Shown: piece by piece, positions 23,925-50,301 of the stretch
Numbering within the stretch: the stretch's first letter is position 1
Layout of the letters: every line of letters starts with the position of its first letter
Sequence record: LC739534.1
Strand: one strand, 5' to 3'
Length of the DNA stretch: 64,000 nt
From: Escherichia phage phiWec181
The notes under the pieces: generated by a model
Databases searched by the model: none
What the model was told of the DNA's origin: nothing
Seen by the model: the letters and a program-made list of their open reading frames with translations, nothing else
Position numbers and translations under genes: made by a program

Positions 23925-24284
23925 TTAGATCCCTTCGCCTTTAGTGATGATAGCTTCCATCACCACAGCTTTCTTCTTACGTTGAACATCTTGACGGATC
24001 AGGAGGCTACCACCTTGATCATCCTTATACTGCTTCATGATGATGAAGTTGTTGCCACACACAGCGCCGATAGCCACGTATGGGCGATTAGAATTATCCA
24101 CATCCGCAGATGGGGTTACATCCGTGCAAGTAAAGAACTTGCCATCAGGATCAGTATAAGCAAAGTGGCCTTTAGCAGTTACTGCAACTTCTCCGGTGCT
24201 TGTGGACTGTGCAGCCACAAACGGTGCAGCAGATGCTACGAAACTTGCAGACAGCAGGGCTACAGCTAAAATAATCTTTTTCAT
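23925..24284 (-). CDS. secreted protein (119 aa, signal peptide)
   Basis: N-terminus MKKIILAVALLSASFVASA. Confidence 0.6.
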   Translation of the reverse strand: MKKIILAVALLSASFVASAAPFVAAQSTSTGEVAVTAKGHFAYTDPDGKFFTCTDVTPSADVDNSNRPYVAIGAVCGNNFIIMKQYKDDQGGSLLIRQDVQRKKKAVVMEAIITKGEGI

Positions 24285-24296
24285 GGTGATCTCCTC

Positions 24297-24458
24297 TTAT
24301 TCCAACAACATACACAATGCAGCTACAACCAAGAACAGAGTAGCCACGCTTAAAGCGATAAACATTCCTAATTGAGAATGAAATTCGCCTATGATAGGTG
24401 CAGACAACGCACTTAGCAAACAACCTGTCAAACTTGCTTTGATAATAAGATCTAACAT
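24297..24458 (-). CDS. small membrane protein (53 aa)
   Basis: Below ORF-track cutoff; GGAGGTAAT RBS then ATG; two hydrophobic segments. Confidence 0.45.
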   Translation of the reverse strand: MLDLIIKASLTGCLLSALSAPIIGEFHSQLGMFIALSVATLFLVVAALCMLLE

Positions 24459-24466
24459 ATTACCTC

Positions 24467-24718
24467 CTACAATTCCACAATAGTTTTATCTAAGTGGTGT
24501 GCCTCAACTTGAGATAAGGTTAGCACTTCAACCAAACCTCTGTCAATACCTAATTTGATCACTTGCAAATAATCACCGAAAAGATCAGAGATTTCAATCT
24601 GGTGTTCAGTAACCACCACGACCTCGTTACCCTTGGTATACTCTCTCCAGATTCGTCCACACTTATAAATGAAATCTTTCTGGTCTTCACTGATCATCTT
24701 AGGCTTAACGCTTAACAT
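24467..24718 (-). CDS. hypothetical protein (83 aa)
   Basis: ORF, operon context. Confidence 0.5.
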   Translation of the reverse strand: MLSVKPKMISEDQKDFIYKCGRIWREYTKGNEVVVVTEHQIEISDLFGDYLQVIKLGIDRGLVEVLTLSQVEAHHLDKTIVEL

Positions 24719-25086
24719 TACATACTCCCGTAGTCTGGTTCAATATGGTGTTTACGACAAATAGCATCCCAACGTTCACTACCGAAACCCCGTCCGTGTA
24801 GTGCATCGTATGCGAAATGTTCTGCCAACCACAATACTACACCATCTGGTTCAGTGTCAAGCGGAATTCGAAATTCTCGATCATAACGCATACGGAGAAC
24901 AAACTCATTACCGTCTTCCAGGAGATGCATGTGACTTTTCGCTCGTGATGCCAAGTCAAAGAAAGGTGCCTCGTCTTTCCAAACCTGGCGCTCAACCTCA
25001 ATACCGTGATCAACTACCAGGGTAGCAATCACATCTTTCATTTCTTTACTAAACATATTCCCTCCTAATAATGTTTTAAAGTCCAC
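24718..25086 (-). CDS. hypothetical protein (122 aa)
   Basis: ORF, operon context. Confidence 0.55.
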   Translation of the reverse strand: MDFKTLLGGNMFSKEMKDVIATLVVDHGIEVERQVWKDEAPFFDLASRAKSHMHLLEDGNEFVLRMRYDREFRIPLDTEPDGVVLWLAEHFAYDALHGRGFGSERWDAICRKHHIEPDYGSM

Positions 25087-25310
25087 TCAATACCTGACGG
25101 GTAACTGCCTCGACAAATCTTACCATCGGAATGCCAGTTAATGCTATCAGGGAAAGTATGATTTAGTGTTTTTTCATGAGGAAGCCATTCTGTAGGCTTC
25201 TCTCCACCATTGATCCATACAAAACCTTCGTCTTCCAGTAAACCTAAAGCAAACTCCATCTCTTCTGCATCGTGAACCGTTACTTTCTGACCTTTCTGTA
25301 ATTTAATCAT
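25065..25310 (-). CDS. hypothetical protein (81 aa)
   Basis: ORF, operon context. Confidence 0.5.
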   Translation of the reverse strand: MIKLQKGQKVTVHDAEEMEFALGLLEDEGFVWINGGEKPTEWLPHEKTLNHTFPDSINWHSDGKICRGSYPSGIEWTLKHY

Positions 25311-25319
25311 ATTACCCCC

Positions 25320-25505
25320 TTAACCAATTAGTTGGACTGCCTTGCAGATGTAAATCCAAACAGGACTAAGCATAAGTGCTACAATACTGGGGTAAATCCC
25401 TTTTGGCTCTATCTCAATTATTGATAAGATTAAGGTGACAGCACTGATAAACATATAAGCTCCCAAGAAAGCCAGCGTCAAGAATTCAGACATAATTAGC
25501 TCCAC
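25320..25505 (-). CDS. small membrane protein (61 aa)
   Basis: Two hydrophobic helices in translation. Confidence 0.5.
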   Translation of the reverse strand: MELIMSEFLTLAFLGAYMFISAVTLILSIIEIEPKGIYPSIVALMLSPVWIYICKAVQLIG

Positions 25506-25828
25506 AAGTTATGAAAATATTCAGCAAACAGGCAACGACCTTCGATTTTATCCGTTTTGGTCATAACGGATTCAGGTTTAAAACCTTCAATCATTTGATC
25601 AATAATGGATAACCACTCCACTGTAGCTTCCCGCTCCTGCTCTTCTGTTAGTTTACGGTAATCTGACACATATTTAGCCCAAATCTTAGATGGGATAAGG
25701 ATATCCCCTCGTTCCACAATACGTGCCTTGAACGCGTACAGTCCAGCACAGATAATCGCGGAGAACGTATCATCCAGGTCTTGCAGATCTTCTACGCCAA
25801 ATTGTAATTCATCATGGATAATTTTCAT
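25496..25828 (-). CDS. hypothetical protein (110 aa)
   Basis: ORF, operon context. Confidence 0.55.
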   Translation of the reverse strand: MKIIHDELQFGVEDLQDLDDTFSAIICAGLYAFKARIVERGDILIPSKIWAKYVSDYRKLTEEQEREATVEWLSIIDQMIEGFKPESVMTKTDKIEGRCLFAEYFHNLWS

Positions 25829-26112
25829 TTTGTTTCTCCCCGCTCTGCGTCTAATTTCAATAAGAAGGCTGCATACTCTTCCGAACCTTTGTGTAAGAAC
25901 ATACGATAAGAACTCACCAGTTTCTTCGTTGTTGTATAACGCTCCATTCCGCCGACAACCCCTGTACCGAGAGTGTAGAGAACAACACCTTCAACCCCAA
26001 CATGGGTTACGACTTCAACCATGTCCGTGTTATCCCAGTGATATTTAGGGGATACAATAAGATCGCCAACTGCTAATTTGATGTTTGCCGCTTCGTCTTG
26101 TGAATAGTACAT
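25825..26112 (-). CDS. hypothetical protein (95 aa), first gene of minus operon
   Basis: ATG at 26112 with GAGAGGAGAAC RBS; promoter upstream. Confidence 0.55.
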   Translation of the reverse strand: MYYSQDEAANIKLAVGDLIVSPKYHWDNTDMVEVVTHVGVEGVVLYTLGTGVVGGMERYTTTKKLVSSYRMFLHKGSEEYAAFLLKLDAERGETK

Positions 26113-37072: not shown

Positions 37073-38887
37073 ATGCATAATTTATATCAGGACGTATTTT
37101 CTTTTTTGGATAAAACTTGTGACACATATACACGAGAGAACGCAAACAAACCCTCTCACCTCGTTAACACACATAGGGACTTACTGGCGGGGATTTTAAG
37201 TAAGCACATGGCAATGACTCAGATATTACCAAAGAACCTCGCAGAATGGCATACAGAAGGTTTTGGACATATCCATGATCTTGATTATCTGTTGTCTCCT
37301 CTTACGAATTGTTGTCTGGTAAACTACCAAGATATGCTGGAGAATGGCTTTAAAATCGGTGCTGCATATATTGAGAAACCTAAGTCCATTGGTGTAGCCA
37401 CCACAGTGTTGACGCAAATCATCCAGGCTGTTGCTTCAAGCCAGTATGGGGGACAAACTTGTGCTCATATTGATCAGGGGTTAAGTCAGTATGTTGAAGC
37501 TACCTACCTTAAGAATTTGAGAGAAACAGAACTACGTTACGGATACCCAGCCTGTAACGAAGCTTTAGCAGCAACAGATAAGGCTGTATATGATGCTATG
37601 CAGACATTGCTGTACCAGGTGAATACACTGATGAGCGTCAATGGACAATCTCCTTTCATCACTATCAGTATGGGATTAGATACAACAGTTTTTGGGAGAA
37701 TGATCACTAAGAACTATCTTAAGGTACACAGTGAAGGGTTAGGGAAAGATCATGTCACACCTGTGTTCCCTAAAGTTGTGTTCTTCCTGGAGGAAGGTGT
37801 TAACATGGCAACTGAAGATCCTAATTACGATCTGAAAAAACAAGCTTTAGAGTGTTGTGCAGATCGAATCTATCCTGACTTCATTTCTGTGCCTCTTAAC
37901 AAGGAAGTGACAGGCTCTACGAAAGGAAATGTTACCAGTATGGGGTGCCGTTCGTTCCTGTCTTACTACACTACAGAACAGGGAGAGAAGTATGATGGAC
38001 GTTTTAATTTAGGAGTTGTGTCAATAAACTTACCATTAATTGCAGCTAAAGCAAAAACAGAAGGATATTGTTTCTCTGACCTACTTGATGAACATATGCG
38101 TCTGGCTTACGATGCTCATATGCTTCGGGTGGAACGCCTACGTCATACACGCGCATCAGAGAACCCTATCCTGTTTATGGAAGGGGCTTTAGCACGTCTC
38201 AATGCTGACGATGAGATTGGAGTTTTGTTTGAGGGTGGGTATGCTTCAATCAGTATTGGGTATGTAGGATTGTCCGAAGCTTTGGAGATCTTATACTCTG
38301 AAGAAGCGGATAAGAAAGAGATGGGCAAAGCTATTCTGCAATACATGAAAGACACTTGTGCAGAGTTTAAAGAGTTGTCTAATCTGCCTTTCAGTTTGTA
38401 TGGCACTCCTGCGGAATCCTTGTGCTACAAGTTTGCCACAGCTTTAAATAAAAATTATCCTAATCTGCATGTACGGGATTACCTGACCAACTCGTTCCAT
38501 CAACCTGTTTGGGAGGTTACAAATCCTTTTGAGAAGTGGGACTACGAAACAGGTTTTGCTCAAATCAGTAATGGCGGGAATATTAGTTATGTAGAAACTC
38601 CCAACCTGAAGAACAACTTGGAAGCTTTAGAAGCTTTGGTCGATTATGCTTATGAGCGCATCCATTACTTTGGCATCAATCAACCAGTGGATCAATGTTT
38701 CAAATGCAACTTTCATGGGGAGTTTAAAGCTACAGCAAAAGGTTTTGAATGCCCTTCGTGCGGGAATAATGAAGAAGAAACTATCTCCGTTATTCGTCGT
38801 GTTTCCGGTTATCTGTCTGCCCCTAACTCGCGCCCTTACAACAAAGGGAAAATGCAGGAAGTGTTACAAAGGGAGAAACATCTTTGA
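37073..38887 (+). CDS. nrdD: anaerobic ribonucleoside-triphosphate reductase, class III (NrdD)
   Basis: 604 aa; C-terminal zinc ribbon CFKC...CPSCGN and glycyl-radical motif RRVSGYL. Confidence 0.9.
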   Translation: MHNLYQDVFSFLDKTCDTYTRENANKPSHLVNTHRDLLAGILSKHMAMTQILPKNLAEWHTEGFGHIHDLDYLLSPLTNCCLVNYQDMLENGFKIGAAYIEKPKSIGVATTVLTQIIQAVASSQYGGQTCAHIDQGLSQYVEATYLKNLRETELRYGYPACNEALAATDKAVYDAMQTLLYQVNTLMSVNGQSPFITISMGLDTTVFGRMITKNYLKVHSEGLGKDHVTPVFPKVVFFLEEGVNMATEDPNYDLKKQALECCADRIYPDFISVPLNKEVTGSTKGNVTSMGCRSFLSYYTTEQGEKYDGRFNLGVVSINLPLIAAKAKTEGYCFSDLLDEHMRLAYDAHMLRVERLRHTRASENPILFMEGALARLNADDEIGVLFEGGYASISIGYVGLSEALEILYSEEADKKEMGKAILQYMKDTCAEFKELSNLPFSLYGTPAESLCYKFATALNKNYPNLHVRDYLTNSFHQPVWEVTNPFEKWDYETGFAQISNGGNISYVETPNLKNNLEALEALVDYAYERIHYFGINQPVDQCFKCNFHGEFKATAKGFECPSCGNNEEETISVIRRVSGYLSAPNSRPYNKGKMQEVLQREKHL

Positions 38888-39354
38888 ATTGTTCAGGCTA
38901 TGAAGCAACAGACATGCTTAACGGAGAAGGGGTGAGATGCTCTCTATGGGTCAGTGGATGTAGCCACGGATGCAGAGGATGTTTCAATCAGAAAGCCTGG
39001 TCATACTCTTACGGCGCAGCTTTCACAGAAGCAGATGTAGAACGTGTGTTAGCAGATTTGGCACGACCTTTCATTAAAGGTGTAACAATCTTAGGGGGAG
39101 AACCTTTAGACCCACAGAATATTGATGAAGTTTATAAGTTGATACTCCGAATCAAGGAAGTGTACGGGGAAGATAAGGATGTGATGGTGTATACAGGATA
39201 TTTGTTTGAAGACATTCCTTCCCACATCAAGAATGTTGTGGATACAATCATGGATGGTAAATATGATTTAAATCAACCAACAGCAAAGCCATTCAGAGGT
39301 TCTGATAATCAGAGATTATGGAACAAGAAGAATGGTATTTGGCAAGCAGATTAA
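38884..39354 (+). CDS. nrdG: anaerobic RNR activating enzyme, radical SAM (NrdG)
   Basis: CSHGCRGC = CxxxCxxC near N-terminus; directly follows nrdD; start may be TTG 38884 or ATG 38914. Confidence 0.85.
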   Translation: MNCSGYEATDMLNGEGVRCSLWVSGCSHGCRGCFNQKAWSYSYGAAFTEADVERVLADLARPFIKGVTILGGEPLDPQNIDEVYKLILRIKEVYGEDKDVMVYTGYLFEDIPSHIKNVVDTIMDGKYDLNQPTAKPFRGSDNQRLWNKKNGIWQAD

Positions 39355-39367
39355 TACAGGAGATAAT

Positions 39368-39559
39368 ATGGTTACGTATTTTGCAGTTAAAAACGAAGTA
39401 GGGACGGCTGGGAAGCTGATTCTGGACAGCGATCGAGATACCCGTGAGGTTATTTGTACCCTGATTGATATTTTACAAAGAAAAGAGTTGCTTTCTGATC
39501 GGGACATTGCTAATCTATTGGATATCGGCGGTGACGAACTCGAACGACTGCCATTCTAA
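39368..39559 (+). CDS. hypothetical acidic protein (63 aa)
   Basis: ATG 39368 with AGGAGA RBS. Confidence 0.45.
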   Translation: MVTYFAVKNEVGTAGKLILDSDRDTREVICTLIDILQRKELLSDRDIANLLDIGGDELERLPF

Positions 39560-39571
39560 AGGAGACTAACA

Positions 39572-40174
39572 ATGCAACAACTGATCGTTAATATGCCTCG
39601 CACTGGTAATGAAGTTTTTGGCTCACCAGTAGACAAAGTTTGGAAAGCACACTTTCATCTGACCTTAGCCGAGGTAAGTAGTAAAGAGCTTATGCGAGCA
39701 GCAAAGATTATCGGTGCAAAATGCACAACTATCGATCTACATCGGGACACGCAATCACAGCGCGATCGTATGTTAACTAAGTATCAGGGTGGCATTGACA
39801 CAGGCTTAATGTTGGAATGTGTGGCAAAGTTAAAAGCGGCTGGCTTCAAAGTGTTACGCTATAAACTGGAACAAATGTTCAAGGACGTAGAACACGTAAT
39901 GCAGATGAACCTAAGCAAAGAACATTACGGAGAAGTACACATCAAGACTCCTGCCTCTATGCCGGAGATTGATACTGGCTTCTTCCGTATCTCTTCTAAT
40001 GCCGAAGAGGTGGATTATCGTTTCTATAATGCCCGTCTGTATACCGAAGAAGATAAGTTGCAGTTCAAGAAAGCTTATGATATGCTTCTGGCAAATGATG
40101 TTGAAATAAAGGGCTACCATGTAGAACAAGTGGTAGTAGACAGTAATCTTAACTTAGACGCATGGTGGGCTTAA
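39572..40174 (+). CDS. hypothetical protein (200 aa)
   Basis: RBS AAAGGAG. Confidence 0.65.
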   Translation: MQQLIVNMPRTGNEVFGSPVDKVWKAHFHLTLAEVSSKELMRAAKIIGAKCTTIDLHRDTQSQRDRMLTKYQGGIDTGLMLECVAKLKAAGFKVLRYKLEQMFKDVEHVMQMNLSKEHYGEVHIKTPASMPEIDTGFFRISSNAEEVDYRFYNARLYTEEDKLQFKKAYDMLLANDVEIKGYHVEQVVVDSNLNLDAWWA

Positions 40175-40175
40175 T

Positions 40176-40832
40176 ATGACTATTAAACATATCTCTTTTG
40201 ATGTATGGAACACACTGATCACAGCAAACCCCAATTACGCAGATATGCGAGCGTGGACTATCGCAAAATACGGGGATATTACGGAAGTAGAAGCAAGAGC
40301 AGCTTACAAGAAGATCAAAAAGGAACTGGACAATGCCGCACTTCAGGGAACAGCCGAGTGTGCAGCATATGCCTGGGAAAGACTTGGTTACGAACTTGGG
40401 ATAACACCTTTGAAGTCTGCAAAGCTTCGTTTCGAGTGTGAACAGTGGTTCCTTAAGTTTCCACCGCATGTGGCTGTGGATTTACCGATGCACTTGCTGT
40501 ATCTTTCGGGGCGTTATGATTTGAGCATCAAGAGTAATACCAACTTCATATCAGGAGATATCTTGCGACGTGCCTGTAAGTTTGAAGGTTGGAATTGTTT
40601 TGAGTTCACACATTTCTCGGATGAAGCTTTACTTTGTAAACCAGATCCGCGATTCTTTGCTCGCACGATCACTTATTCTCCAATCCCTCTGGTAGGGCAG
40701 GAAGTGTTGCACGTAGGTGATAGTGAAGAATATGATGGAAAATGTGTTGACGTAGGATTTAACTTCTGTCATATTAAGAACCCTAACGACTTGTTAGATA
40801 AACTTGCTAAAGGAGAACTTGTTAATGCGTAA
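40176..40832 (+). CDS. HAD-superfamily hydrolase-like protein (218 aa)
   Basis: N-terminal FDVWNTL resembles HAD motif I; C-terminal HVGDSEEYD resembles motif IV. Confidence 0.55.
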   Translation: MTIKHISFDVWNTLITANPNYADMRAWTIAKYGDITEVEARAAYKKIKKELDNAALQGTAECAAYAWERLGYELGITPLKSAKLRFECEQWFLKFPPHVAVDLPMHLLYLSGRYDLSIKSNTNFISGDILRRACKFEGWNCFEFTHFSDEALLCKPDPRFFARTITYSPIPLVGQEVLHVGDSEEYDGKCVDVGFNFCHIKNPNDLLDKLAKGELVNA

Positions 40833-41652
40833 TCAAACTCAAATCTTTGCTCACAAATTCGATAGTCTGGAAACTGCTCGCTTTGATATTCGTGACTATT
40901 CCAAACTGAAGTTTGGCAGCAACCAGGCGGCTCGCCGTATGGGGCGAACGCTGGCAGTCTCTTTCTATGACTTGGTAGTCAAGAATATGCCGGAAGAAGA
41001 ATTTGTGGTGATTCCTTCACCTTACAACCATGTGCATAACGCAGCAACCATGATGACCAATCAGTTCATCAACTTCCTGAACCTGTTGCTGTTGAATCAC
41101 AAGGGTAGCCGTGCAGTAGAATTGGATACGATCCACCGCAAGGTGAGTTACATTAACGATTATGGTTTCCTGGACAAAGCGAGCCGTAAGAAACTGATTG
41201 ATGGTGACACCTTCTATTGCAACAAAGATTTTTGGGGCAACAAGAAGCTGATCTTCATTGATGATGTGAACATCACGGGAACTCATGAAGACAAACTGAT
41301 TGAGATCCTGGATGAAAATAAAGTTACGAATGATGTTTACTTCCTGTATTTTGCGAAGTATACTGGTAATCAAGCAGACACAGAGGCTAAACTGAACTTC
41401 AACCATATTAACACGACAGATGCTTTTGTTAAGATGATCAATGAAGAATGTGATGCGCAGTGTCTTGTTCGTCCTATCAAGTATTTGATGGGACAAACAC
41501 CGGAAGAGTTTAAAATCATTCTTTCCCGTTTGCCGCACCAATACGTAGAAGCACTGTTCTTTGGGTGTCTTGGGGAAGGTTATGATAAGATCGAGAAGTA
41601 TTCTGAAAACTTCGTCTTCCTGAACCGTTACTTTAACCAGCATATCCTGTAA
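40825..41652 (+). CDS. phosphoribosyltransferase (PRTase)-fold protein (275 aa)
   Basis: ATG 40825 with AAGGAGAAC RBS; KKLIFIDDVNITGTHED matches PRPP-binding loop. Confidence 0.6.
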   Translation: MRNQTQIFAHKFDSLETARFDIRDYSKLKFGSNQAARRMGRTLAVSFYDLVVKNMPEEEFVVIPSPYNHVHNAATMMTNQFINFLNLLLLNHKGSRAVELDTIHRKVSYINDYGFLDKASRKKLIDGDTFYCNKDFWGNKKLIFIDDVNITGTHEDKLIEILDENKVTNDVYFLYFAKYTGNQADTEAKLNFNHINTTDAFVKMINEECDAQCLVRPIKYLMGQTPEEFKIILSRLPHQYVEALFFGCLGEGYDKIEKYSENFVFLNRYFNQHIL

Positions 41653-41661
41653 GGAGGGAAA

Positions 41662-42144
41662 ATGTTGAAGGTTGTTACTGGGAATCTGATCGATGCCGCC
41701 AAGAATGGGAAAGTGAACGTTATAGCCCACTGTTGTAACTGTATGTGTAATATGGGTGCAGGGATTGCTCCGCAAATTAAACGAGCATTTCCTTATGCAT
41801 ATGCAGCCGACTTGGATACAGCGGCAGGTGATCAAAGCAAACTGGGTTCTTTTAGTTTAGGGGTGCCGGAGGAAGTGTCTGACCCACTGGTTTATAACCT
41901 GTACGGACAGTACCGTTACGGGTATAACGGTAAAGGTCGTCAGTTGGACTATGATGCCCTGTACGATGCTCTTGAGGCTATGGCAAAGGATCTCCACAAA
42001 TGGGTGAACACATCTGCCAAACATAAGATTGGTCTACCTATGATCGGAGCAGGGTTGGCAGGAGGTAATTGGGCTATCATTGAAGTGATGATTGAAGAAA
42101 CTTTAGTAAAAACAGGTCACGATGTGACTATTTATAAACTTTAA
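41662..42144 (+). CDS. macrodomain protein (160 aa)
   Basis: N-terminus VVTGNLIDAAKNGKVNVIAHCCNCMCNMGAGIA matches macrodomain GDI...AIVNAAN...GGGV pattern. Confidence 0.7.
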   Translation: MLKVVTGNLIDAAKNGKVNVIAHCCNCMCNMGAGIAPQIKRAFPYAYAADLDTAAGDQSKLGSFSLGVPEEVSDPLVYNLYGQYRYGYNGKGRQLDYDALYDALEAMAKDLHKWVNTSAKHKIGLPMIGAGLAGGNWAIIEVMIEETLVKTGHDVTIYKL

Positions 42145-42157
42145 GAGGAGAAATAAT

Positions 42158-42379
42158 ATGGGTGTTGTTGCAGGTGTTCTGGCAGTAGTTATCGTGTTTG
42201 TTCTGGCTTTCCTGATTAGTATGATTCCAGCATGGCTTCTGCTGCTGGCTTATAACTACGTTGTTGAAATGATGGGTCACACAGATATCACTGTTCCTAT
42301 CACCTTCTGGACTGTGGTGTGTGTGGCATTTATCATGGCTGTACTACGTGGGATCTTTTCCTCAAGTTCTTCAAAATAA
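42158..42379 (+). CDS. small membrane protein (73 aa)
   Basis: Two hydrophobic helices; RBS AAGAGGAG. Confidence 0.6.
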   Translation: MGVVAGVLAVVIVFVLAFLISMIPAWLLLLAYNYVVEMMGHTDITVPITFWTVVCVAFIMAVLRGIFSSSSSK

Positions 42380-42460
42380 GTGTTGACAAGGTTTTAGAAT
42401 AGAGTAAGATGTATCACATGAGGCGGGGAGTGGTTCCCCGCAAAGAGAAAGGAGAAAATA

Positions 42461-43435
42461 ATGCAACTTGGTTTTCCAATCATTGATGTAGTGGTGTTGG
42501 TAGGTATTCTTGTTCTGTCGATCTGTGTTGACTTTTTTGGTCATCGTGAAAACAAGGAGATCTCTTTCAAATCCGCTGTGGCTTGGTCAGTATTCTGGAT
42601 TGGTGTGTCTTTAGCCTACTACGGTTTTGTATACTTCCAGCACGGCGCAGCTTTTGCAAACTTATTCTTGAGTGGATATGTGTTAGAGAAGTCGCTCTCG
42701 GTAGATAACTTGGTAGTGTTTGTAGCAGTGTTCTCCAGTTTCGGGATTAAGAGCACACACTTACAACACAAAATTCTACTCTGGGGTATTGCAGGTGCGA
42801 TTGTCTTCCGAGGTGTGTTTGTAGCAGCAGGGACTTATCTGCTAAGTTTGGGTTGGTTTGTTAATATCATCTTCGGTGCTGTTATCCTGTTCTGTGCTTT
42901 TAAAATGGTAATGGCTGGCGGTGATGATGAAGAAGTGGATTACTCTAAACATTGGGCGACACGCTTTGTACGTAAACTATTCCCAGTATCGGATCAGATG
43001 GATGGCGAGAAGTTCTTCACAATTAAGAATGGTGTTCGTGTAGCAACTCCGGCTCTGGTTTGTGTGTTCGTGATGGAAATGGTGGATGTGATCTTTGCAG
43101 TAGACTCGGTTCCGGCTGTAATTGCAGTGACACAAGAACCACTGCTTGTATTCTCTTCGATGCTCTGTGCAATCTTAGGCTTACGTGCTCTGTTCTTTGT
43201 TCTTAGTGTGGCCCTGAAGTATCTGGTTCACCTGGAAAAAGCAGTTATCGCAGTCCTGGTGTTTGTTGGTGTGAAACTGATGTATCACCCGTTTGCAGAA
43301 ACGCTGCACGCAAAAGTGAGCTTCCTGCCAGCGCATATTGACCCGACGATCAGCATGTATATCGTGCTTGGTACTCTGACCCTGGGCGTGATTGCAAGTT
43401 TCATCTTCCCTGAAAAAGAAGAAGCTACCGCTTAA
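42461..43435 (+). CDS. TerC-family integral membrane protein (324 aa)
   Basis: Multi-pass hydrophobic translation with YVLEKSLSVDNLVVF, which I recognise as the TerC signature. Confidence 0.7.
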   Translation: MQLGFPIIDVVVLVGILVLSICVDFFGHRENKEISFKSAVAWSVFWIGVSLAYYGFVYFQHGAAFANLFLSGYVLEKSLSVDNLVVFVAVFSSFGIKSTHLQHKILLWGIAGAIVFRGVFVAAGTYLLSLGWFVNIIFGAVILFCAFKMVMAGGDDEEVDYSKHWATRFVRKLFPVSDQMDGEKFFTIKNGVRVATPALVCVFVMEMVDVIFAVDSVPAVIAVTQEPLLVFSSMLCAILGLRALFFVLSVALKYLVHLEKAVIAVLVFVGVKLMYHPFAETLHAKVSFLPAHIDPTISMYIVLGTLTLGVIASFIFPEKEEATA

Positions 43436-43443
43436 TACCAATG

Positions 43444-43468
43444 AACCTCCTTCGGGAGGTTTCTTACT
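43444..43468 (+). terminator. candidate intrinsic terminator
   Basis: AACCTCC-TTCG-GGAGGTT hairpin followed by TCTT. Confidence 0.5.
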
Positions 43469-43483
43469 AACATAGGAGGAATT

Positions 43484-43834
43484 ATGTCTGTATATTTTGA
43501 CGATGTTCAGGAATATGTTTGGTGTCTTTCTGGCACAATCTCGGAAGTAGAAGCTGCGATTCAAGAGGTTTTTCCTTACGCTTATGTAGAAGTTAAACAG
43601 GCACCTCCTATGGATCTTCCCCCTAATGTGGAAGCTTGTTGTGGTTCCGGCGAGGGTACAGTCATCCCAGTTCTGCGTTACGAACTACAAGCAGCAAGTG
43701 CAAATGTCGATGATATTATTACAGAAATTAAGGCGTATGGTTTCTGGACCTCTCCTTACGCTAAATGGGATAACTCTGACACTTGGGATTTATTCTTCTG
43801 GGATAATGAGACAGATGACGAGGTATTTCTGTAA
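43484..43834 (+). CDS. hypothetical acidic protein (116 aa)
   Basis: RBS AGGAGG. Confidence 0.6.
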   Translation: MSVYFDDVQEYVWCLSGTISEVEAAIQEVFPYAYVEVKQAPPMDLPPNVEACCGSGEGTVIPVLRYELQAASANVDDIITEIKAYGFWTSPYAKWDNSDTWDLFFWDNETDDEVFL

Positions 43835-44076
43835 TGAAAGTTGTTTGGGTTGTGTTTGAAAATATTTGTTTTGCAATAGGTTTGTTCGTCATACTTTTTG
43901 TGTTGACAAACGTGATCAATGGTAGTAAAGTATCCCTATACAAAGACGGGGAGCAGATTTACTGCTTCTCTGGAGATTTCAAACACACCTGTGTTAATAT
44001 GCAGAAAGAAGAAACTCCACACCAGAAGTCAAGAGAAGATTTTGATTGGTGGTCACTACTTAATAACTTAAGATGA
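43834..44076 (+). CDS. membrane-anchored small protein (80 aa)
   Basis: N-terminal hydrophobic helix. Confidence 0.5.
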   Translation: MKVVWVVFENICFAIGLFVILFVLTNVINGSKVSLYKDGEQIYCFSGDFKHTCVNMQKEETPHQKSREDFDWWSLLNNLR

Positions 44077-44085
44077 GGAGAAAAT

Positions 44086-44955
44086 ATGAAAAATATTCAG
44101 CCATTACCTGTAGTTGGGGATTTGTATTTCTTATCTGGTACGGGTTATTCCCCAGAAGCATTAGAAGTTAACAAGAACGTCTTCCGAGTGAAAGAAATAA
44201 GAGAAGAATGTAATGAAATTGTTTTCGAAGGTATTACTAATGGAGTTCTTCAGTATGCAGAGATGCGTAGCTGCTTCCAGCAACCTTTCCGCCCGTTGGC
44301 AGACGAGTATAAGATTGCGGTAAATATTGATGATCTTAAAAAAGAACCAGGGTTCGAAGCGTTCTCTACTTTTATGGAAGATACGTATGTGGATGTAAAG
44401 AGATCTAACCTTTTCGCGGGGGATAATTTCCCTCACTTTGTGTCAGAGAAAAGTGATGGTTTTTCCGACTACGTGGATGCTGTAAACTATGATGTTTCTG
44501 AATTGACAGGAGAGCAGGATTATCTTCTGCTGTCTCCTAAAGATTTCATGCGCGTAATGTATGCCGTAGCCGAACAGAAAAAGAAGAAAGAAAAGCTTGT
44601 AGCCAAAAAAGTTAAAAAGGTTAAAGGTAAACGTGCCAAAGGTGTTCCAGAACGTAAGCGCACCGTAAATAAGGCGACAGTCTTCTTTACCAGCGGTGAG
44701 CAATATACGATCAAAGGTTTTAAAGAAGTGGGTTACACTGCTGGCGGAAACCTTCTGTTCTTCACAGTTGCAGAAGAAGGAGAAACTTTTATCCGTTTTT
44801 CCAATATGTGGGAAATGTCTGTAGAAGATATTAAAAGTGTTGTTGTTTTAGGTGTACATAAGAGTTTCATTATTAATCAAATCTCTGATTTCAGTGCACA
44901 CTTGACAGCACCAGATTTCGAAACTACCACAACAAGCTTTAACTTCAAGGTGTAA
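44086..44955 (+). CDS. hypothetical protein (289 aa) with Lys-rich segment
   Basis: RBS GAGGAG; internal KKKKEKLVAKKVKKVKGKRAK. Confidence 0.65.
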   Translation: MKNIQPLPVVGDLYFLSGTGYSPEALEVNKNVFRVKEIREECNEIVFEGITNGVLQYAEMRSCFQQPFRPLADEYKIAVNIDDLKKEPGFEAFSTFMEDTYVDVKRSNLFAGDNFPHFVSEKSDGFSDYVDAVNYDVSELTGEQDYLLLSPKDFMRVMYAVAEQKKKKEKLVAKKVKKVKGKRAKGVPERKRTVNKATVFFTSGEQYTIKGFKEVGYTAGGNLLFFTVAEEGETFIRFSNMWEMSVEDIKSVVVLGVHKSFIINQISDFSAHLTAPDFETTTTSFNFKV

Positions 44956-44958
44956 TGC

Positions 44959-45549
44959 ATGAATACCGAGAGAGATTTAAAACTCTTGTGGTGGGAAGTG
45001 ATGCAGGAGATCAAGGAGGATTTCCCTGTTTACTACAACATGCTACGTGAAGCTGGATATACGGCTTGCGTTAGGAACAAAGTGAATAACTCTTTCGGTT
45101 GGTGCAACTACCGAGAAAAGATTGTTGTTGTGAATTGGCACTTGCATAAAAACTCCACAAGGGATATGATAGTGGACACAATGAAGCATGAGATTGCTCA
45201 TGCGATCGACGGTTGTATGGGTAAGTTCAGTCGTCATGGACCACACTGGCAAAAGCTGGCAGCAGAGTTGGGAGCCAATCCTAAAGCTACTTCCAAAGAA
45301 CCGTTAAACCATGAGTACAAATATGTTCTTGTTTTGGTGGACAGATTTGCCACAAGATGTGTTAGAGGGTATAATCGTAAACCTAACCGTATGACTCCAG
45401 GGAAACAACCACATATTTGGTTGAAGAGTGATAAAGAGGGGACAGAAGGAAAAATATGGTTGTATAAATGGGAAGATTGGGTTAAAGTAGCTAAAGAATA
45501 TGGTGTTTCACCTTACACAAGAGAAATAGAAGAGGAGAATGAAGAATGA
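44959..45549 (+). CDS. SprT-like zinc metalloprotease-motif protein (196 aa)
   Basis: HEIAHAI (HExxH) preceded by conserved Cys/Trp region. Confidence 0.5.
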   Translation: MNTERDLKLLWWEVMQEIKEDFPVYYNMLREAGYTACVRNKVNNSFGWCNYREKIVVVNWHLHKNSTRDMIVDTMKHEIAHAIDGCMGKFSRHGPHWQKLAAELGANPKATSKEPLNHEYKYVLVLVDRFATRCVRGYNRKPNRMTPGKQPHIWLKSDKEGTEGKIWLYKWEDWVKVAKEYGVSPYTREIEEENEE

Positions 45550-46658
45550 CAAGTCCATTTTTGAAAGCGGCAACTGGTGGTCAAAAGAAATCTGAAACGA
45601 GTGTACTGACTGCTACTACAGATGCAAGCAAGTCCGTGTTCGCTCCGAGTGTCCTGGATGCAAGTCCAGTGTATGCTCCAGCAGCGCCAAAAGCTGTGCC
45701 TACCTTGCCAACAATGTCTCGTAAAGAGATTGAAGAAGTGGGTGCAGAAGCAGGTTTAACTCTCCGCACGCTGAATGCCGAAGTGTTAAAGCACCAACGT
45801 AGCAATCAAGGCGATGAAATGAGCCAACGCCTTACCGCGCTGATTAAACAAGCCAAACAGCTTGATCCTGCTTCTATCAAGCAGAGCAAAGGTGTAGGCA
45901 AACTTATCAAGAAACTGATGGGTATGAAGGAAGATCTGTTCGGGGAATTCGATAATGTGAACAACCGTATCGAAGAACTCGTTAAGAATCTTCAGATGGA
46001 TATTCGTAAAGAAGAAGATTCTCTGGTGTACCTGGAGAAGCTGCACCAGGCGATCGGACAGTACGCCGCAAGCCTGAATCGTGATATGGAATTACTCACA
46101 GCAGCTTATGAGCAAGAACTGGCTAACTTTGAAGCTACGCCAGAAGATGACGTAGAAGCCCGTCAACGCGTCCGTGACACGCTTGATCTTCTGGAGATAC
46201 GTATTGCTGACTTGAAGGCATTACGCTTGCTGTGCGTGCAAATGGGGCCGCGTGTATTGGGTATGCAGAAAGTATCTGCCAGCCTCATGCGTTCTGCTCG
46301 TAATATTGTGAACAATGTGATTCCTGCTTACTCGGCAAACTTCTCGATGTATATTGAAAGTCTGCGCCAGAAGAAAGCAGCAGAAACACAGAACAACGTT
46401 CTGGACGAGTTCAACCTGGCAATCAAACTGGGTAGCGATCTTGCCACACAGAACCAGATCGAAGCAGCAGCACTGGCTAACCGCCAAGTGTTGGATATCG
46501 AAACTCTGCGTCACGATCAGGAGAACTTGGTTAAGATGTTGGAAGAAACTAACCGCATCAATACGGAAGCCCGTGCTGCCCGTGTTGATTACATCAATGA
46601 AGTTCAATCTCTCGAAGATGGGATGGTTGACGCTGTTAAGAAGGGGTTGGGTAAATGA
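45546..46658 (+). CDS. coiled-coil protein (370 aa), possibly TelA-like
   Basis: Long helical, heptad-rich translation; TelA guess rests on size and Ter neighbourhood only. Confidence 0.6.
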   Translation: MTSPFLKAATGGQKKSETSVLTATTDASKSVFAPSVLDASPVYAPAAPKAVPTLPTMSRKEIEEVGAEAGLTLRTLNAEVLKHQRSNQGDEMSQRLTALIKQAKQLDPASIKQSKGVGKLIKKLMGMKEDLFGEFDNVNNRIEELVKNLQMDIRKEEDSLVYLEKLHQAIGQYAASLNRDMELLTAAYEQELANFEATPEDDVEARQRVRDTLDLLEIRIADLKALRLLCVQMGPRVLGMQKVSASLMRSARNIVNNVIPAYSANFSMYIESLRQKKAAETQNNVLDEFNLAIKLGSDLATQNQIEAAALANRQVLDIETLRHDQENLVKMLEETNRINTEARAARVDYINEVQSLEDGMVDAVKKGLGK

Positions 46659-46861
46659 GAATCCGTGTATACATGCTTGACGAACAAGCTGGAGAAATAG
46701 GTGTTCGTTATGATGAAGAGAAACGCTTTGCCCCAATGACCCAGCTACAAACTCCAGATATTTTTGCAGCTTGTCGTGACGGATATATCTATGAAGGTTG
46801 TCGCAACTTTGGCAGATTTAAAGTTATTTCTGATGTGGAATTTAACGAGGAGGAAGAATGA
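46655..46861 (+). CDS. hypothetical protein (68 aa)
   Basis: ATGA overlap. Confidence 0.5.
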   Translation: MRIRVYMLDEQAGEIGVRYDEEKRFAPMTQLQTPDIFAACRDGYIYEGCRNFGRFKVISDVEFNEEEE

Positions 46862-47028
46862 AAACATTGCGTGTGAACATCGAAACTACCTGGCGAGATT
46901 TCGAGGTTGTTGATATTGAGATTGAAGACGATATGTCTCAAGAAGATATCGAAGATCTTGCAAAAGAAACATTTCAGGACTATTGTAATTACGGGTTCCA
47001 TATTTTAGGGGAGGAAGAAGATGTTTAA
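46858..47028 (+). CDS. hypothetical acidic protein (56 aa)
   Basis: Below ORF-track cutoff; ATG overlaps previous stop; RBS GAGGAGG. Confidence 0.4.
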   Translation: MKTLRVNIETTWRDFEVVDIEIEDDMSQEDIEDLAKETFQDYCNYGFHILGEEEDV

Positions 47029-47419
47029 ACACACAAACGTAAACTTGAAATTAACAGTAACAGATCCGACTCTTTTCATCAATCTTACAAGCGGGGAAGT
47101 TTATGAAGTTATCACAGACGAGGATGGTTCTTGCTTCCTTAAAGGTTATTATCTCTGTGAATCTGATGAGTTGGTATCTATTATCACCTTGGGAGAATAC
47201 GAAGAACCAGGCTTCCGTGTGGAGGTTGTTAAGAATCCCGATATTATCCAGTTGACTCGCCAAGAACTGATCACAATCATGGAAGACGCTTTTATTGATG
47301 GATGGAAGACTCAAAACTATGATTGGAGTGGCCCAGAAGACTTCCTGCGTCTTCATAAAGAGTATGACGATTCCAGCGAAACTACTATTGCCATTGATAG
47401 TATTAAGGCTGGTGTGTAA
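47021..47419 (+). CDS. hypothetical protein (132 aa)
   Basis: RBS GGAGGAAGAAG. Confidence 0.6.
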   Translation: MFKHTNVNLKLTVTDPTLFINLTSGEVYEVITDEDGSCFLKGYYLCESDELVSIITLGEYEEPGFRVEVVKNPDIIQLTRQELITIMEDAFIDGWKTQNYDWSGPEDFLRLHKEYDDSSETTIAIDSIKAGV

Positions 47420-47488
47420 TGAAAAGTGTTGACAACAATCTCCATAAGATGGATAATACCTCCATCGAAAAAACGGGAGGAGATAAGA

Positions 47489-47761
47489 ATGTTTGATTTT
47501 AAAATAAAGGATTCAAAACCCCAAGATGTAGCAGTTCGTTTCGAAGAGTTGGGGATTGGTGAAACTTTCATGTATTATTCAGCATATGAAGAAAATGGTT
47601 TGGATACATTTGCAAACTTAGTATTCCTTAAAAGCGGCGGCGCGACTGCTGTTTGTTTGAATAGTTCATCAAGAGGGAGTGTCCATACCGTATCCCCAGA
47701 TGTGCCGATGGTTGCAGTTCGTTTAGTAGTTACTGATATTACACTTACAGAGGAGAAATAA
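47489..47761 (+). CDS. hypothetical protein (90 aa), paralog of 48783-49064
   Basis: ATG 47489 with GGGAGGAG RBS; both paralogs sit immediately upstream of a TerD-type gene. Confidence 0.55.
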   Translation: MFDFKIKDSKPQDVAVRFEELGIGETFMYYSAYEENGLDTFANLVFLKSGGATAVCLNSSSRGSVHTVSPDVPMVAVRLVVTDITLTEEK

Positions 47762-47762
47762 T

Positions 47763-48563
47763 ATGTCCAATAAAATTAGCCTGAAGAAACGCCAAGACAC
47801 CCTGACCATTTCACTGAAGAAAAAGAAAATTGTCAACGAAGATCAAAAGATCGTTCTGCGTGTTGCAAGCGCACTGGATATCTCCGGCAGCATGTCCAGC
47901 CTGTATCGTAACGGTACTGTAAGTGAGTTTGTTGGTAAGCTGCTTCCGTTTGGTATGCTGTTCGATGATAACGCGCAGATCGATATGTGGGCTTTCAACA
48001 ATAGCTCTCGTGAAATCACTCCAGCAACTGCTGATGTGTATGATGATTACGTTGGTAAATGCATTAATGGTCGTGTAACAGTCCAGGGTGGCACAAGCTA
48101 TGCACCTGTTATGCAGGATATTTACGATTCCTACTTCGGTAGCACCACTAAATATGAAACTGTAGAAACCCCTGTAACCAAAGAAGTTCCTAAGAAAGGT
48201 TTCTTCAACCGTTTACTGGGTAAAACCGAAACTGTAGAAGCTATTGTAGAAAAAACTGTAGCCGTTGCTGTGCCTGGTGTAGACGTTACTCCGGCAGTTG
48301 TGTTCTTCCAGACAGATGGAGAGAACGATGATCCGAGCCGTGTACTCTCCGTACTGGAAAAGAACAAGGGTAAACCTATTTACTGGTTCATGGTGGGTGT
48401 TGGTAGTGCTCGTTTCTCTTTCCTGAAAGATTTGGCTGAAGCTTACGACAACGTAGCATTCATTGGTCTGAACGATCTTTCCTTGACAGACGAGCAGCTT
48501 TACGATAAACTCTTGTCTGAAGAGTTCGGTGAGTGGGTTGAAAAGGTTGGTGCTAAGAAATGA
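47763..48563 (+). CDS. vWA-domain protein with TerD-like N-terminal leader (266 aa)
   Basis: MIDAS-like DISGSM; GGTSYAPV; VVFFQTDGEND; N-terminus KISLKK...ISLKKK like the TerD gene. Confidence 0.65.
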   Translation: MSNKISLKKRQDTLTISLKKKKIVNEDQKIVLRVASALDISGSMSSLYRNGTVSEFVGKLLPFGMLFDDNAQIDMWAFNNSSREITPATADVYDDYVGKCINGRVTVQGGTSYAPVMQDIYDSYFGSTTKYETVETPVTKEVPKKGFFNRLLGKTETVEAIVEKTVAVAVPGVDVTPAVVFFQTDGENDDPSRVLSVLEKNKGKPIYWFMVGVGSARFSFLKDLAEAYDNVAFIGLNDLSLTDEQLYDKLLSEEFGEWVEKVGAKK

Positions 48564-48802
48564 TCGACACGCTGATCTCTCAAACGGTGTTGCAAGTGAT
48601 GCGTGAGAGAGAAGCTTTCATCATGAAGGGTCTTAAAGATTATTTTGGGACTCTTTCTTTGGAAGAACTCAAACTACGCGTTGAGATCCATGCGTATCCT
48701 TCTTATGAAGAATGGATTGACAAAGCAAATAAAGCTGTTATAATGCGTATCAACAAACCAGAAATCACGACAGGAGGACAAGATGTTAAATTTCGCCATT
48801 AA
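48560..48802 (+). CDS. hypothetical protein (80 aa)
   Basis: ATGA overlap. Confidence 0.5.
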   Translation: MIDTLISQTVLQVMREREAFIMKGLKDYFGTLSLEELKLRVEIHAYPSYEEWIDKANKAVIMRINKPEITTGGQDVKFRH

Positions 48803-49064
48803 GAAAGATAGCAAACCAAAGATTCAGACTTGTCGCATTGCAAATCTTACACATGGTGATTTGTTTGTTCTGAAAAGTGCCTACGACGAAGACGGTCTTG
48901 ATCCAGAAGCAGTCGTCGTTTATATGGTGTTGCGGCGAGATGAAGACACCAAGCACCCATACAATGCGGTAGAGATGAATTACAATGCAATGTTGTGCTC
49001 AATACACTATACGGCAGAGTTGGTGCAGGTAGAGTTAACAGTTAACGAAATTAAACTTAAATAA
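48783..49064 (+). CDS. hypothetical protein (93 aa), paralog of 47489-47761
   Basis: RBS CAGGAGGA. Confidence 0.55.
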   Translation: MLNFAIKKDSKPKIQTCRIANLTHGDLFVLKSAYDEDGLDPEAVVVYMVLRRDEDTKHPYNAVEMNYNAMLCSIHYTAELVQVELTVNEIKLK

Positions 49065-49079
49065 TAGAGGAGACACATA

Positions 49080-49682
49080 ATGAGCGATAAAATTTCCCTG
49101 AAAAAAGGTTCCACCGAGAAGATTTCCCTGAAGAAAGTTGCTCCGGCACTGAAAGAACTGCGTCTGGAGTTCTCCTGGAAATCAAACTCTAAACTGGATC
49201 TGGATGTAAGCGCACTTGTATGCCGACACAACGCCTCTGGCAACCCTGAAATGCTGTCTGCACGTCATCTGGTTTGTTATGCTAACAAGTTTGATCCAGA
49301 ACGTTCTGTATTCGCAGGTGATGATGTTCGTGACGGTACTGGTCAAATGGAACAAATCGATGTAACCTTGGCTAAGATCTCCGATAAAGCCGAAGAGATT
49401 GCTTTTGTCCTAACTATTGATGATGAAACGGGTCAGAAACGTCTGGGTCACGCTACTGAAGGTATGCTGAAGATCTTTGATGCCGAGCGTAACGTTGAGA
49501 TCCTGGACTTCGACTTCTTGGCTCCTGAAGTGGCTGGTAATACCATCTGCCACGTAGCTTCCCTGGTTCGTGAAGACGGTGAATGGAAACTGAAAGCTTA
49601 CGGTGTTGGTAAAGCAGGTATGGATATCTGTGATGTGGTTATGGCCTTCGGTGGTCAGAAAGAATGGTACGATTGCCCGTAA
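49080..49682 (+). CDS. TerD-domain protein (200 aa)
   Basis: Translation aligns by eye to E. coli TerD: ISLKKG, DLDVSAL, GDDVRDGTG, IAFVLTIDD, REDGEWKLKAYGVG. Confidence 0.8.
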   Translation: MSDKISLKKGSTEKISLKKVAPALKELRLEFSWKSNSKLDLDVSALVCRHNASGNPEMLSARHLVCYANKFDPERSVFAGDDVRDGTGQMEQIDVTLAKISDKAEEIAFVLTIDDETGQKRLGHATEGMLKIFDAERNVEILDFDFLAPEVAGNTICHVASLVREDGEWKLKAYGVGKAGMDICDVVMAFGGQKEWYDCP

Positions 49683-49779
49683 GATTTAACTGAAATGTTG
49701 TTGGGGGAGAAATCCCCCATTGCAAAAACGCCTCTCATGTGTTATACTGGTAGTTCATTCACCCAAAAGGAGGCAAAAT

Positions 49780-50301
49780 TTGCTGATAAAAAACTTTGTA
49801 ACAGTTGCGTTACTATCCTTAACTGCTTTTACATTTACACCTGTCACGGCAACCGCCGAAGCTGCAAACGTAAAGACTGCTAAAGTAGTTCACAAATGTG
49901 CAAAGCAAGATACTAAAGAAAATCTCTTGGCTTGTGCAATTTACGCTGAAAGTCGTAATCAGGGTAAACGTGGGATGTATGCTGTAGGTAATGTAGTATT
50001 GAACAGGAAAGGTGATGATTACTTCCCTGATAATATTAAAGATATTCTCTTCCAACGAGGACAATTCTCTTACAGGAAGAAGTTTAACGTTACCGAAGCA
50101 GAGCGATGGAAAGAAGCTAAAGCTATCGCAAAACGACTTATATACCTGGATACACACTTCCCTACACTTAGAGAAGCCCAGGACATGACAAAAGGTGCGA
50201 CATTTTTTAAGAAAGTAAAAACCCGTGCACACTGGACAAAAGATATGGTCTTAGTGTATCGTTATAAAGAACATCAGTTCTACCTACCGACAAGGAGCTA
50301 A
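49780..50301 (+). CDS. SleB/CwlJ-like cell-wall hydrolase with signal peptide (~173 aa)
   Basis: LLACAIYAESRNQG...AVGNVVLNR motif; TTG start 49780 after AAAGGAGG gives a signal peptide, whereas ATG 49720 has no RBS. Confidence 0.65.
   Translation: MLIKNFVTVALLSLTAFTFTPVTATAEAANVKTAKVVHKCAKQDTKENLLACAIYAESRNQGKRGMYAVGNVVLNRKGDDYFPDNIKDILFQRGQFSYRKKFNVTEAERWKEAKAIAKRLIYLDTHFPTLREAQDMTKGATFFKKVKTRAHWTKDMVLVYRYKEHQFYLPTRS

Follow-up and report, generated by a model that had tools for sequence, protein, structure and literature searches.

The DNA considered here comprises 64,000 nucleotides of Escherichia phage phiWec181 (LC739534.1) and is referred to as the window. At 40176-42144 it carries three co-directional, tightly packed open reading frames (ORFs) on the + strand, which encode a HAD-fold hydrolase, a protein with a phosphoribosyl pyrophosphate (PRPP) loop belonging to the phosphoribosyltransferase (PRTase) family PRTase_3, and a macrodomain protein. 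An initial annotation had placed these three proteins side by side and just upstream of a Ter-like module, and in both respects it was correct: the ORFs have the corresponding family matches, and the Ter genes follow, terC starting at 42461 and terD ending at 49682. The HAD and PRTase genes overlap by 8 nt, and the gaps are 1 nt between an upstream 200-aa ORF and the HAD gene, 9 nt between the PRTase and macrodomain genes and 13 nt between the macrodomain gene and a 73-aa ORF. Each ATG is preceded by a Shine-Dalgarno sequence, namely GGTGGG (spacing 6 nt) for the HAD gene, AAGGAG (9 nt, inside the HAD gene) for the PRTase gene and AAGGAGG (5 nt) for the macrodomain gene. A 4.5-kb query around the trio finds 100% identical sequence in Escherichia phages phiWec179 and phiWec186 and 78-94% identity in many genomes of Phapecoctavirus and Justusliebigvirus, both genera of the Stephanstirmvirinae, which are myoviruses of approximately 150 kb. 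The block is kept in 127 phage records, in 69 of which at least 80% of the query is covered, and because of this conservation the three ORFs are regarded as real genes rather than chance ORFs. In phage phAPEC8 the gene order is identical, the products being annotated there as "hydrolase," "hypothetical protein," and "phosphatase."

The PRTase matches Pfam PF15610 (PRTase_3, ComF-like) with an E value of 6.7e-41 and 140.8 bits (cut-off 28.7), and the alignment is full-length, residues 17-273 of the protein read from the TTG start corresponding to profile positions 8-264 of 264. Its PRPP loop, LIFIDDVNITGTHED, consists of a hydrophobic run, two acidic residues and a TG-T motif. In 19 PRTase_3 homologues with 45-79% identity the segment DDVxITGTHE is invariant, and the invariant positions at this range of identity include the loop LIFIDDVNITGTHE and several further polar residues. 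An AlphaFold2 model built with the 19 homologues (mean predicted local distance difference test score, pLDDT, 90.9) has the core of a type I PRTase at residues ~1-185, followed by a C-terminal helical domain of ~90 residues. Foldseek matches of the model are hypoxanthine-guanine phosphoribosyltransferases (HGPRTs), ComF and PyrR, with ComF and HGPRT being the best. No NCBIfam model and no solved structure is matched by sequence; there is no sequence match to any salvage PRTase family in Pfam, NCBIfam or the PDB sequences, and neither Prs nor the type II (NAMPT-type) PRTases resemble it in sequence or fold. The fold matches together with the invariant PRPP loop indicate that the protein is a ComF-like type I PRTase-fold protein with a predicted intact PRPP site, and not a salvage enzyme, a Prs or a NAMPT, in agreement with the early remark that it is unlike canonical Prs. 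PRTase_3 matches are present in 156 phage records, 126 of them at 60-80% identity to the protein of this phage.

The HAD protein reaches 22.3 bits with Pfam PF00702, which is under the cut-off of 26.4; orthologues from a Rhizobiaceae locus, Tannerella and Pedococcus (L030, L042, and L046) clear it. The protein matches phrog_14393 ("hydrolase") with an E value of 8.7e-114 and aligns along its length with the solved HAD protein 2om6, its nearest solved relative. Motifs I-IV are recognisable, motif I being FDVWNTL with D9 as nucleophile, and 2om6 has the same motif I. Across 40 orthologues FD9VWNTL, SNT, KP and GDSxxxD are kept, and with them the Asp nucleophile, Ser/Thr of motif II, Lys of motif III and the acidic residues of motif IV.

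The two genes are a pair. Loci with PRTase_3 relatives were drawn from viral contigs, bacterial genomes and contig look-ups, and those with both genes number 44 (30 non-redundant at <90% identity) from phages and four bacterial groups. In all 44 the HAD gene lies directly upstream of the PRTase_3 gene, on the same strand and in the same order, the sole PRTase_3 gene without a HAD gene being a second, apparently disrupted copy on a Rhizobium plasmid. The pairwise identities of the HAD and PRTase_3 proteins are correlated (Spearman 0.62, a value reached in 0 of 2000 Mantel permutations). Because of this constant pairing and the correlated identities, the two genes can be said to be inherited as a unit, and they form an obligate, co-evolving gene pair. 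The overlap of the genes suggests a translationally coupled, co-inherited unit of two predicted enzymes.

Ter systems are widespread, and a link to resistance against phages, colicins and metalloids has been made since the 1990s. In the window TerC, TelA, vWA-TerF and TerD are encoded in one co-directional cluster (42461-49682), all matching far over the Pfam cut-offs. A HAD-PRTase_3 pair was counted as linked to Ter when at least two of TerC, TerD, TelA and vWA-TerF were encoded within 10 kb, as judged by iterated profile searches of the fetched loci and Pfam scans. So defined, the linkage recurs in five phage lineages, namely the group of this phage and four others (including contigs of 197 and 350 kb), and in bacteria in Bacteroidales, a Peribacteria genome and Pedococcus. 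For example, the Pedococcus locus reads TelA, TerD, TerC/DUF475, vWA-TerF, TerD, TerD, HAD, PRTase_3, PRTase_3, which is the parts list of the phage, and the Tannerella locus has, in order, three TerD, two vWA, TerY, PP2C, a kinase, HAD, PRTase_3 and a P-type ATPase. That PRTases and HAD phosphoesterases constitute the biosynthetic arm of Ter systems was described by Iyer et al. (2021; PMC7824862), and Aravind's group predicted them to make a nucleoside or nucleotide derivative (Anantharaman, Iyer and Aravind, 2012, as summarised in PMC7824862). Complete or abbreviated Ter systems were reported from jumbo "and certain other related smaller" phages, where a role in competition with superinfecting phages was suggested (Iyer et al., 2021; PMC7824862). 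The initial annotation had pointed to this proposal of a PRTase plus HAD module, which is supported: the PRTase falls into the Ter-linked PF15610, and the same association of HAD and Ter genes is found in bacteria. Enterobacterial Ter plasmids gave no PRTase_3 match, the only plasmids matched being those of Rhizobium, Sinorhizobium and Hymenobacter; since they are not matched by the PRTase_3 protein, the PRTases of enterobacterial Ter plasmids belong to other families.

We therefore lean, at little better than even confidence, towards the reading that the region is the front part of a Ter-type system borne by the phage, in which HAD and PRTase_3 make a nucleoside-like molecule that acts together with the Ter proteins, while the macrodomain works independently on ADP-ribose derivatives. 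The analysis establishes gene structure, family, fold, the conservation of the catalytic loops, the strict and co-evolving HAD-PRTase_3 pairing and its recurrent link to Ter genes; beyond this we infer two catalytic steps. PRTase_3 would use its PRPP loop to join PRPP to a base-like acceptor, yielding an analogue of a ribonucleoside 5'-monophosphate, and the HAD protein would then strip off the phosphate, so that a nucleoside-like small molecule is released. The latter would work alongside TerD, TerC, TelA and vWA-TerF encoded downstream, possibly in superinfection exclusion or in remodelling of the membrane or of the stress state of the infected cell. The macrodomain would handle ADP-ribose derivatives separately, as a lineage-specific neighbour of the pair. 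To our knowledge the predicted small-molecule product of Ter systems has never been identified.

Several points weigh against this reading. Within 10 kb of the pair there is no Ter gene in about half of the phage lineages (the T4-like contigs L006 and L007, contig L008 and five further viral contigs) and in all Rhizobiaceae loci, and since such loci exist the pair can work without Ter proteins. The macrodomain gene stays beside the pair in L008, which is diverged (~45-53% identity) and has no Ter genes, and this hints at a functional link of the macrodomain with the pair. HAD phosphatases and mutases have an Asp two residues after the nucleophile as general acid/base; here this position is occupied by Trp (residue 11), and family-wide by Trp, Tyr or Leu, with Trp prevailing (few Tyr or Leu) from phages to Rhizobium, Bacteroidales and Pedococcus. 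Because Trp replaces this Asp, the mechanism of a simple 5'-nucleotidase or plain phosphomonoesterase is not secure for the HAD protein; the exchange points to an uncommon substrate, or to a leaving group for which protonation is unnecessary. In the literature no experimental work was found on PF15610 or on the Ter genes of Stephanstirmvirinae, and neither a solved structure nor an assay for any PF15610 member, nor any biochemistry of the HAD partner. Finally, ComF, the closest structural relative of PRTase_3, is no established catalytic PRTase. PRTase_3 could also be non-catalytic and, like ComF, PyrR or PurR, bind a nucleotide, PRPP or nucleic acid in a sensing or regulatory role, the HAD protein being its partner. 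We consider this quite unlikely: the full PRPP loop (two acidic residues, TGT) and the polar positions are invariant in phages and bacteria alike, and strict pairing with a hydrolase that retains its nucleophile, Lys and motif IV acids fits consecutive catalysis better.

The pair might also serve ordinary nucleotide salvage or pool adjustment for phage DNA synthesis, its place in the genome being set by nrdD and nrdG. Indeed, the block comes directly after these two genes, and other phages have a thymidine kinase, a dCTP deaminase/dUTPase or a canonical Pribosyltran gene at a distance of at most 10 kb. Such a role is nevertheless very unlikely. For salvage, coupling of a PRTase to a dephosphorylating partner would be futile, the protein matches no salvage PRTase family by sequence, and the same pair is found in bacterial Ter operons with kinases, phosphatases and ATPases and on rhizobial plasmids beside ClpP.

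Some surroundings of the pair outside Ter operons should be mentioned in their own right. In Rhizobiaceae (Rhizobium, Sinorhizobium, and Ensifer; L027-L040, e.g., L030 9061-11584) HAD and PRTase_3 are followed by a ClpP-like protease gene, and these loci, without nearby Ter genes, are often on large plasmids; in phage contig L015 a ClpP gene (5772-6464) is located 2 kb upstream of the pair. On contigs of T4-like and jumbo phages an RNA ligase is encoded near the pair, which in L006 precedes genes for a DUF2828/DUF7788 (vWA-like) protein and a 2H-SAK phosphoesterase (regions L006 10967-13168 and 7171-8475; L004 686-1834). For the phage studied here an RNA-repair context of the kind found beside the pair in other phages (RNA ligase, 2H phosphoesterase, NUDIX, HD) was rejected, the phiWec179 genome having no homologues of these, nor of the DUF2828/DUF7788 protein. 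No partner recurs among the phage loci without Ter genes, where ClpP, a metallophosphatase, an AAA_33 kinase-like protein and a weak DSPc match were seen.

The third protein of the trio has 23.0 bits with PF01661 (cut-off 22) and matches by sequence SCO6735 (5e3b, E = 6e-13), Bt_1257, DarG of T. aquaticus, human TARG1 and yeast Poa1p, the other matched structures being 2fg1, 5m31, 4j5r and 6lfu. MGAGIAP and IGAGLAGGNW align to the ADP-ribose phosphate-binding loops of 5e3b, 2fg1, 5m31 and 4j5r, and both loops are intact. The macrodomain thus keeps the loops for ADP-ribose and the PRTase is not of an ordinary salvage type, which are the two points on which the initial annotation had staked its proposal. 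The segment NLYGQ83YRYGYNGKGRQLDY aligns with NMIGQHGMKTGSKGAPVRY, Gln83 being at the position of SCO6735 Gln85 and followed by a long mobile loop. This Gln85 is essential to SCO6735, whose substrates are ADP-ribosylated acidic residues of proteins and DNA modified by DarT, from both of which it strips the ADP-ribose (PMC9411070). Lys34 of SCO6735 is Ala in the phage protein, and the Lys84/Asp125 dyad of TARG1 is absent, GAGLAGGNW standing in the phage protein where TARG1 has GCGLDRLQW and no Lys being found at the position of Lys84. With the DarG models of NCBIfam (NF048014) and PADLOC the protein gives 43.7 bits and 3.2e-12, respectively; it does not qualify as a DarG antitoxin, having 160 aa without a C-terminal DarT-binding domain and 43.7 against the required 250 bits. 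From these alignments it is assigned to the stand-alone macrodomains of the ALC1-like class, subclass SCO6735/Bt_1257/Adpp.

The relationship to Adpp is of interest with respect to function. Over the whole length the phage macrodomain is 39-41% identical to that of Vibrio phage Pontus, whose gene sits between Adps and Namat and whose sequence is 94.9% identical to Adpp of Vibrio phage Gary. Gary Adpp dephosphorylates ADP-ribose (ADPR)-1''-phosphate, which lets NARP1 overcome the aRES defence (Osterman et al., 2026; bioRxiv 10.64898/2026.01.28.702374). When phiWec179 (1-150000) and the window were searched with the Pontus Adps and Namat proteins by tblastn, nothing better than an E value of 3 was obtained. 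As the searched 150 kb contain no homologue of Adps or Namat, the presence of NARP1 or NARP2 in the phage was rejected, and the idea, put forward at the outset, that the PRTase rebuilds NAD+ found no support. As to the companion idea of degrading ADP-ribose-derived immune signals, the homology to Adpp makes counter-defence centred on ADP-ribose the most likely role of the macrodomain gene. Macrodomains of the Adpp/SCO6735 type were found in ~2,700-2,965 phage records, compared with 156 with PRTase_3. In only 15% of 859 NARP1 operons is there such a macrodomain gene (bioRxiv 10.64898/2026.01.28.702374), and most phage Adpp-type macrodomains, including those of T4-like, rV5-like and FelixO1-like phages, are therefore "orphans." The macrodomain gene adjoins the pair in two of ~13 phage lineages, the Stephanstirmvirinae and contig L008 (order: macrodomain, 89-aa ORF, HAD, PRTase_3; no nearby Ter genes), is 7-8 kb away from it in two further phage lineages and is adjacent to it in none of the bacterial loci. 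Because this adjacency is rare and the family widespread in phages, the macrodomain is treated as a separate gene and not as a core step. Its homology suggests that it is probably a separate ADP-ribose-processing gene used for counter-defence, probably an ADPR-1''-phosphate phosphatase or a de-ADP-ribosylase directed against NAD+- or ADP-ribose-based defences of the host; its persistence beside the pair in L008 makes a functional link possible.

A side observation is that the phiWec179 record, outside the window, has an annotated "NAD-dependent protein deacylase" of the SIR2/CobB-like type (58118-58918). This gene could bear on the substrate of the macrodomain, but it is 57 kb distant.

For the 200-aa ORF that immediately precedes the HAD gene Pfam gives no match, whereas two PADLOC "AbiEi" models do match it (E = 6.7e-13, near full length); a full profile search assigns 225 representative clusters to its family. 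Most members are stand-alone proteins of 170-220 aa; some are fused, after NUDIX, after HD_4 or with a Ham1-like domain. One bacterial member matches a PADLOC AbiEi model at 1.7e-63, and members of its bacterial subgroup (relatives at L051 6001-6576, L053 6001-6558, and L055 1293-1880) are encoded directly upstream of genes in the position of a toxin, which in one case are two genes with the AbiEii domain PF08843 and in two cases genes for ~300 aa without a domain match. Nineteen positions, including HxT and ExHxK motifs, are invariant across phage, bacterial and fused members. The structural model (pLDDT 81.6) resembles two ferredoxin-like halves and has no convincing PDB neighbour. The family looks like an undescribed enzyme family in the slot of the AbiEii antitoxin, with a phage branch, and the phage protein may be an acquired enzymatic antitoxin or an anti-AbiE factor. 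With respect to the HAD-PRTase_3 pair it is a neighbour and not a proven part of a pathway.

The presence of these two flanking genes raises the question of whether all four proteins act together. The initial annotation had envisaged a pathway of the three enzymes, and with the upstream ORF included, three or four enzymes could form a single pathway acting on a metabolite derived from ADP-ribose, NAD+ or PRPP, a counter-defence cassette distinct from NARP1 and NARP2 that, e.g., salvages or destroys the products of host NADase or ADP-ribosyltransferase defences. The spacing between the four genes is -8 to 13 nt, all of them lying before the single gap with a promoter-like site, and the macrodomain is a homologue of Adpp. 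Members of the upstream ORF family occur fused to nucleotide hydrolases (NUDIX, HD_4 and Ham1), and an HD_4 gene is also present two genes after PRTase_3 in L008. In the latter, diverged and without Ter genes, macrodomain, HAD and PRTase_3 are neighbours too, although in another order. L008 has, however, several genes in common with the phage group and does not represent a fully independent observation. Moreover, ~11 of 13 phage lineages, like every bacterial locus, have no macrodomain gene near the pair, and the upstream ORF is missing in the Justusliebigvirus-like loci L012 and L014 and is not near the pair in L008. The failure to find Adps or Namat in the searched 150 kb leaves no known route from ADPR to a PRTase substrate. 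A common pathway is therefore unlikely, and the three-enzyme version did not hold up: next to the pair the macrodomain gene occurs in Stephanstirmvirinae and a single further phage contig, and never in a bacterial locus.

A broader idea is that the AbiEi-like ORF, HAD, PRTase_3 and the macrodomain constitute a dedicated counter-defence cassette, to which we give a slim chance. The pair would make or reshape a nucleoside-like signal that jams or hijacks Ter-type or nucleotide-signalling immunity of the host, or would convert NADase products into a form of use to the phage, and the macrodomain and the upstream protein would disarm toxins of the ADP-ribose-based (aRES, DarT) and AbiEii types. If true, this would give the first chemical identity for the "Ter metabolite," and in a tractable E. 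coli phage.

The neighbouring genes are listed in Table 1. Throughout Stephanstirmvirinae (loci L001, L002, and L010-L014) the macrodomain gene is trailed by the ORF for the 73-aa hydrophobic protein. The 81 nt before terC are the sole sizeable gap of the block, and the promoter-like site in this gap may split two transcription units. It should be noted that in a promoter/terminator scan sites in the region were no commoner than in shuffles; the operon boundaries therefore rest on gene spacing and on one promoter annotated in phAPEC8 at the matching place ahead of terC. Within the Ter cluster the last 4 nt of the SprT-like gene are also the first of telA; the SprT-like gene was detected in the loci of Phapecoctavirus and, of the four Justusliebigvirus-like ones, in a single locus. 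The two small ORFs directly upstream of the vWA-TerF and terD genes have no Pfam family match and are paralogues of each other (BLASTP 34% identity, E = 2e-10). Farther away, the GC skew changes sign at ~26 kb, coinciding with the switch of genes from the minus to the plus strand in the annotation (~24000-26000), and in the phiWec179 record, outside the window, a four-gene dTDP-rhamnose pathway is annotated at 42284-45559.

Table 1. Genes and sites around the HAD-PRTase_3 pair (positions in the window)
Feature	Position	Strand	Basis or remark
nrdD	37073-38887	+	
nrdG	38884-39354	+	
75-aa ORF	39332-39559	+	
200-aa ORF, enzyme-like family without Pfam model	39572-40174	+	
HAD-fold hydrolase, 218 aa	40176-40832	+	Family and structure-sequence matches, motifs
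PF15610 PRTase_3, 275 aa from ATG	40825-41652	+	Longest ORF begins with TTG at 40804
Stand-alone macrodomain, 160 aa	41662-42144	+	Pfam, NCBIfam DarG model, PDB sequence matches
73-aa hydrophobic, probably membrane protein	42158-42379	+	phrog_16065
Sigma-70-like promoter match TTGACA-16-TAAGAT	42383-42410	+	81-nt gap ahead of terC
TerC/Alx-family integral membrane protein	42461-43435	+	PF03741 1.1e-39; TIGR03718 1.2e-96
SprT-like metalloprotease-domain protein	44959-45549	+	PF10263 2.2e-9
TelA-family protein	45546-46658	+	PF05816 2.3e-34
Small ORF directly upstream of vWA-TerF	47426-47761	+	
vWA-TerF-like protein	47763-48563	+	PF10138 2.7e-37
Small ORF directly upstream of terD	48783-49064	+	
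TerD-domain protein	49080-49682	+	PF02342 1.8e-29
Endolysin	49720-50301	+	

Over 100 E. coli phages with sequenced genomes, relatives of phAPEC8 and phi92, carry the module. Their HAD-PRTase_3 unit, a minimal form of the predicted Ter biosynthetic pair, is small, with two genes, and translationally coupled; it should therefore be easy to delete or express, which makes its chemistry directly testable. The locus further shows the Adpp-like macrodomain family in one more setting that is not a NARP1 operon, and it brings to light an unnamed, enzyme-like family, acquired by phages, in the position of the AbiEii antitoxin.

The individual proteins resemble known ones to different degrees. With ComF/ComFC (PDB 7p0h) PRTase_3 has only 9% identity; unlike ComF/ComFC it has a C-terminal helical domain of its own and an obligate HAD partner, and its context is not related to competence. 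The macrodomain shares with SCO6735 the long mobile loop and the Gln, and both are without Lys84 and Asp125 of TARG1. With Adpp (NARP1-AP; ~40% identity) it has in common the motifs AHxCNC..MGxGIAP, NxYGQY and IGxGLAGGxW, whereas its gene is outside any Adps-Namat operon. NARP1 (Adps and Namat) and NARP2 (NAMPT and NMNAT) share with the phage enzymes centred on PRPP and ADPR, and NARP1-AP has a macrodomain as accessory.

For the proposed sequence of reactions there is a precedent in angustmycin biosynthesis, where experiments showed a nucleoside to be formed by the successive action of AgmE, an enzyme with a PRTase domain, and the phosphatase AgmB (PMC8599513). The two Agm proteins have, however, no detectable sequence relationship to the phage pair beyond the shared fold and belong to a six-enzyme antibiotic cluster of Streptomyces. 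Closest is the biosynthetic module of Ter systems, the function of which is itself a prediction. With this module the phage shares PF15610, the HAD partner and the Ter neighbours; it differs in having only one PRTase, without genes for ATP-grasp, TerB, TerY, kinase or phosphatase, and in the ADP-ribose macrodomain and the AbiEi-like ORF that flank the pair. The phage locus is a fresh instance of this already described, predicted Ter biosynthetic association.

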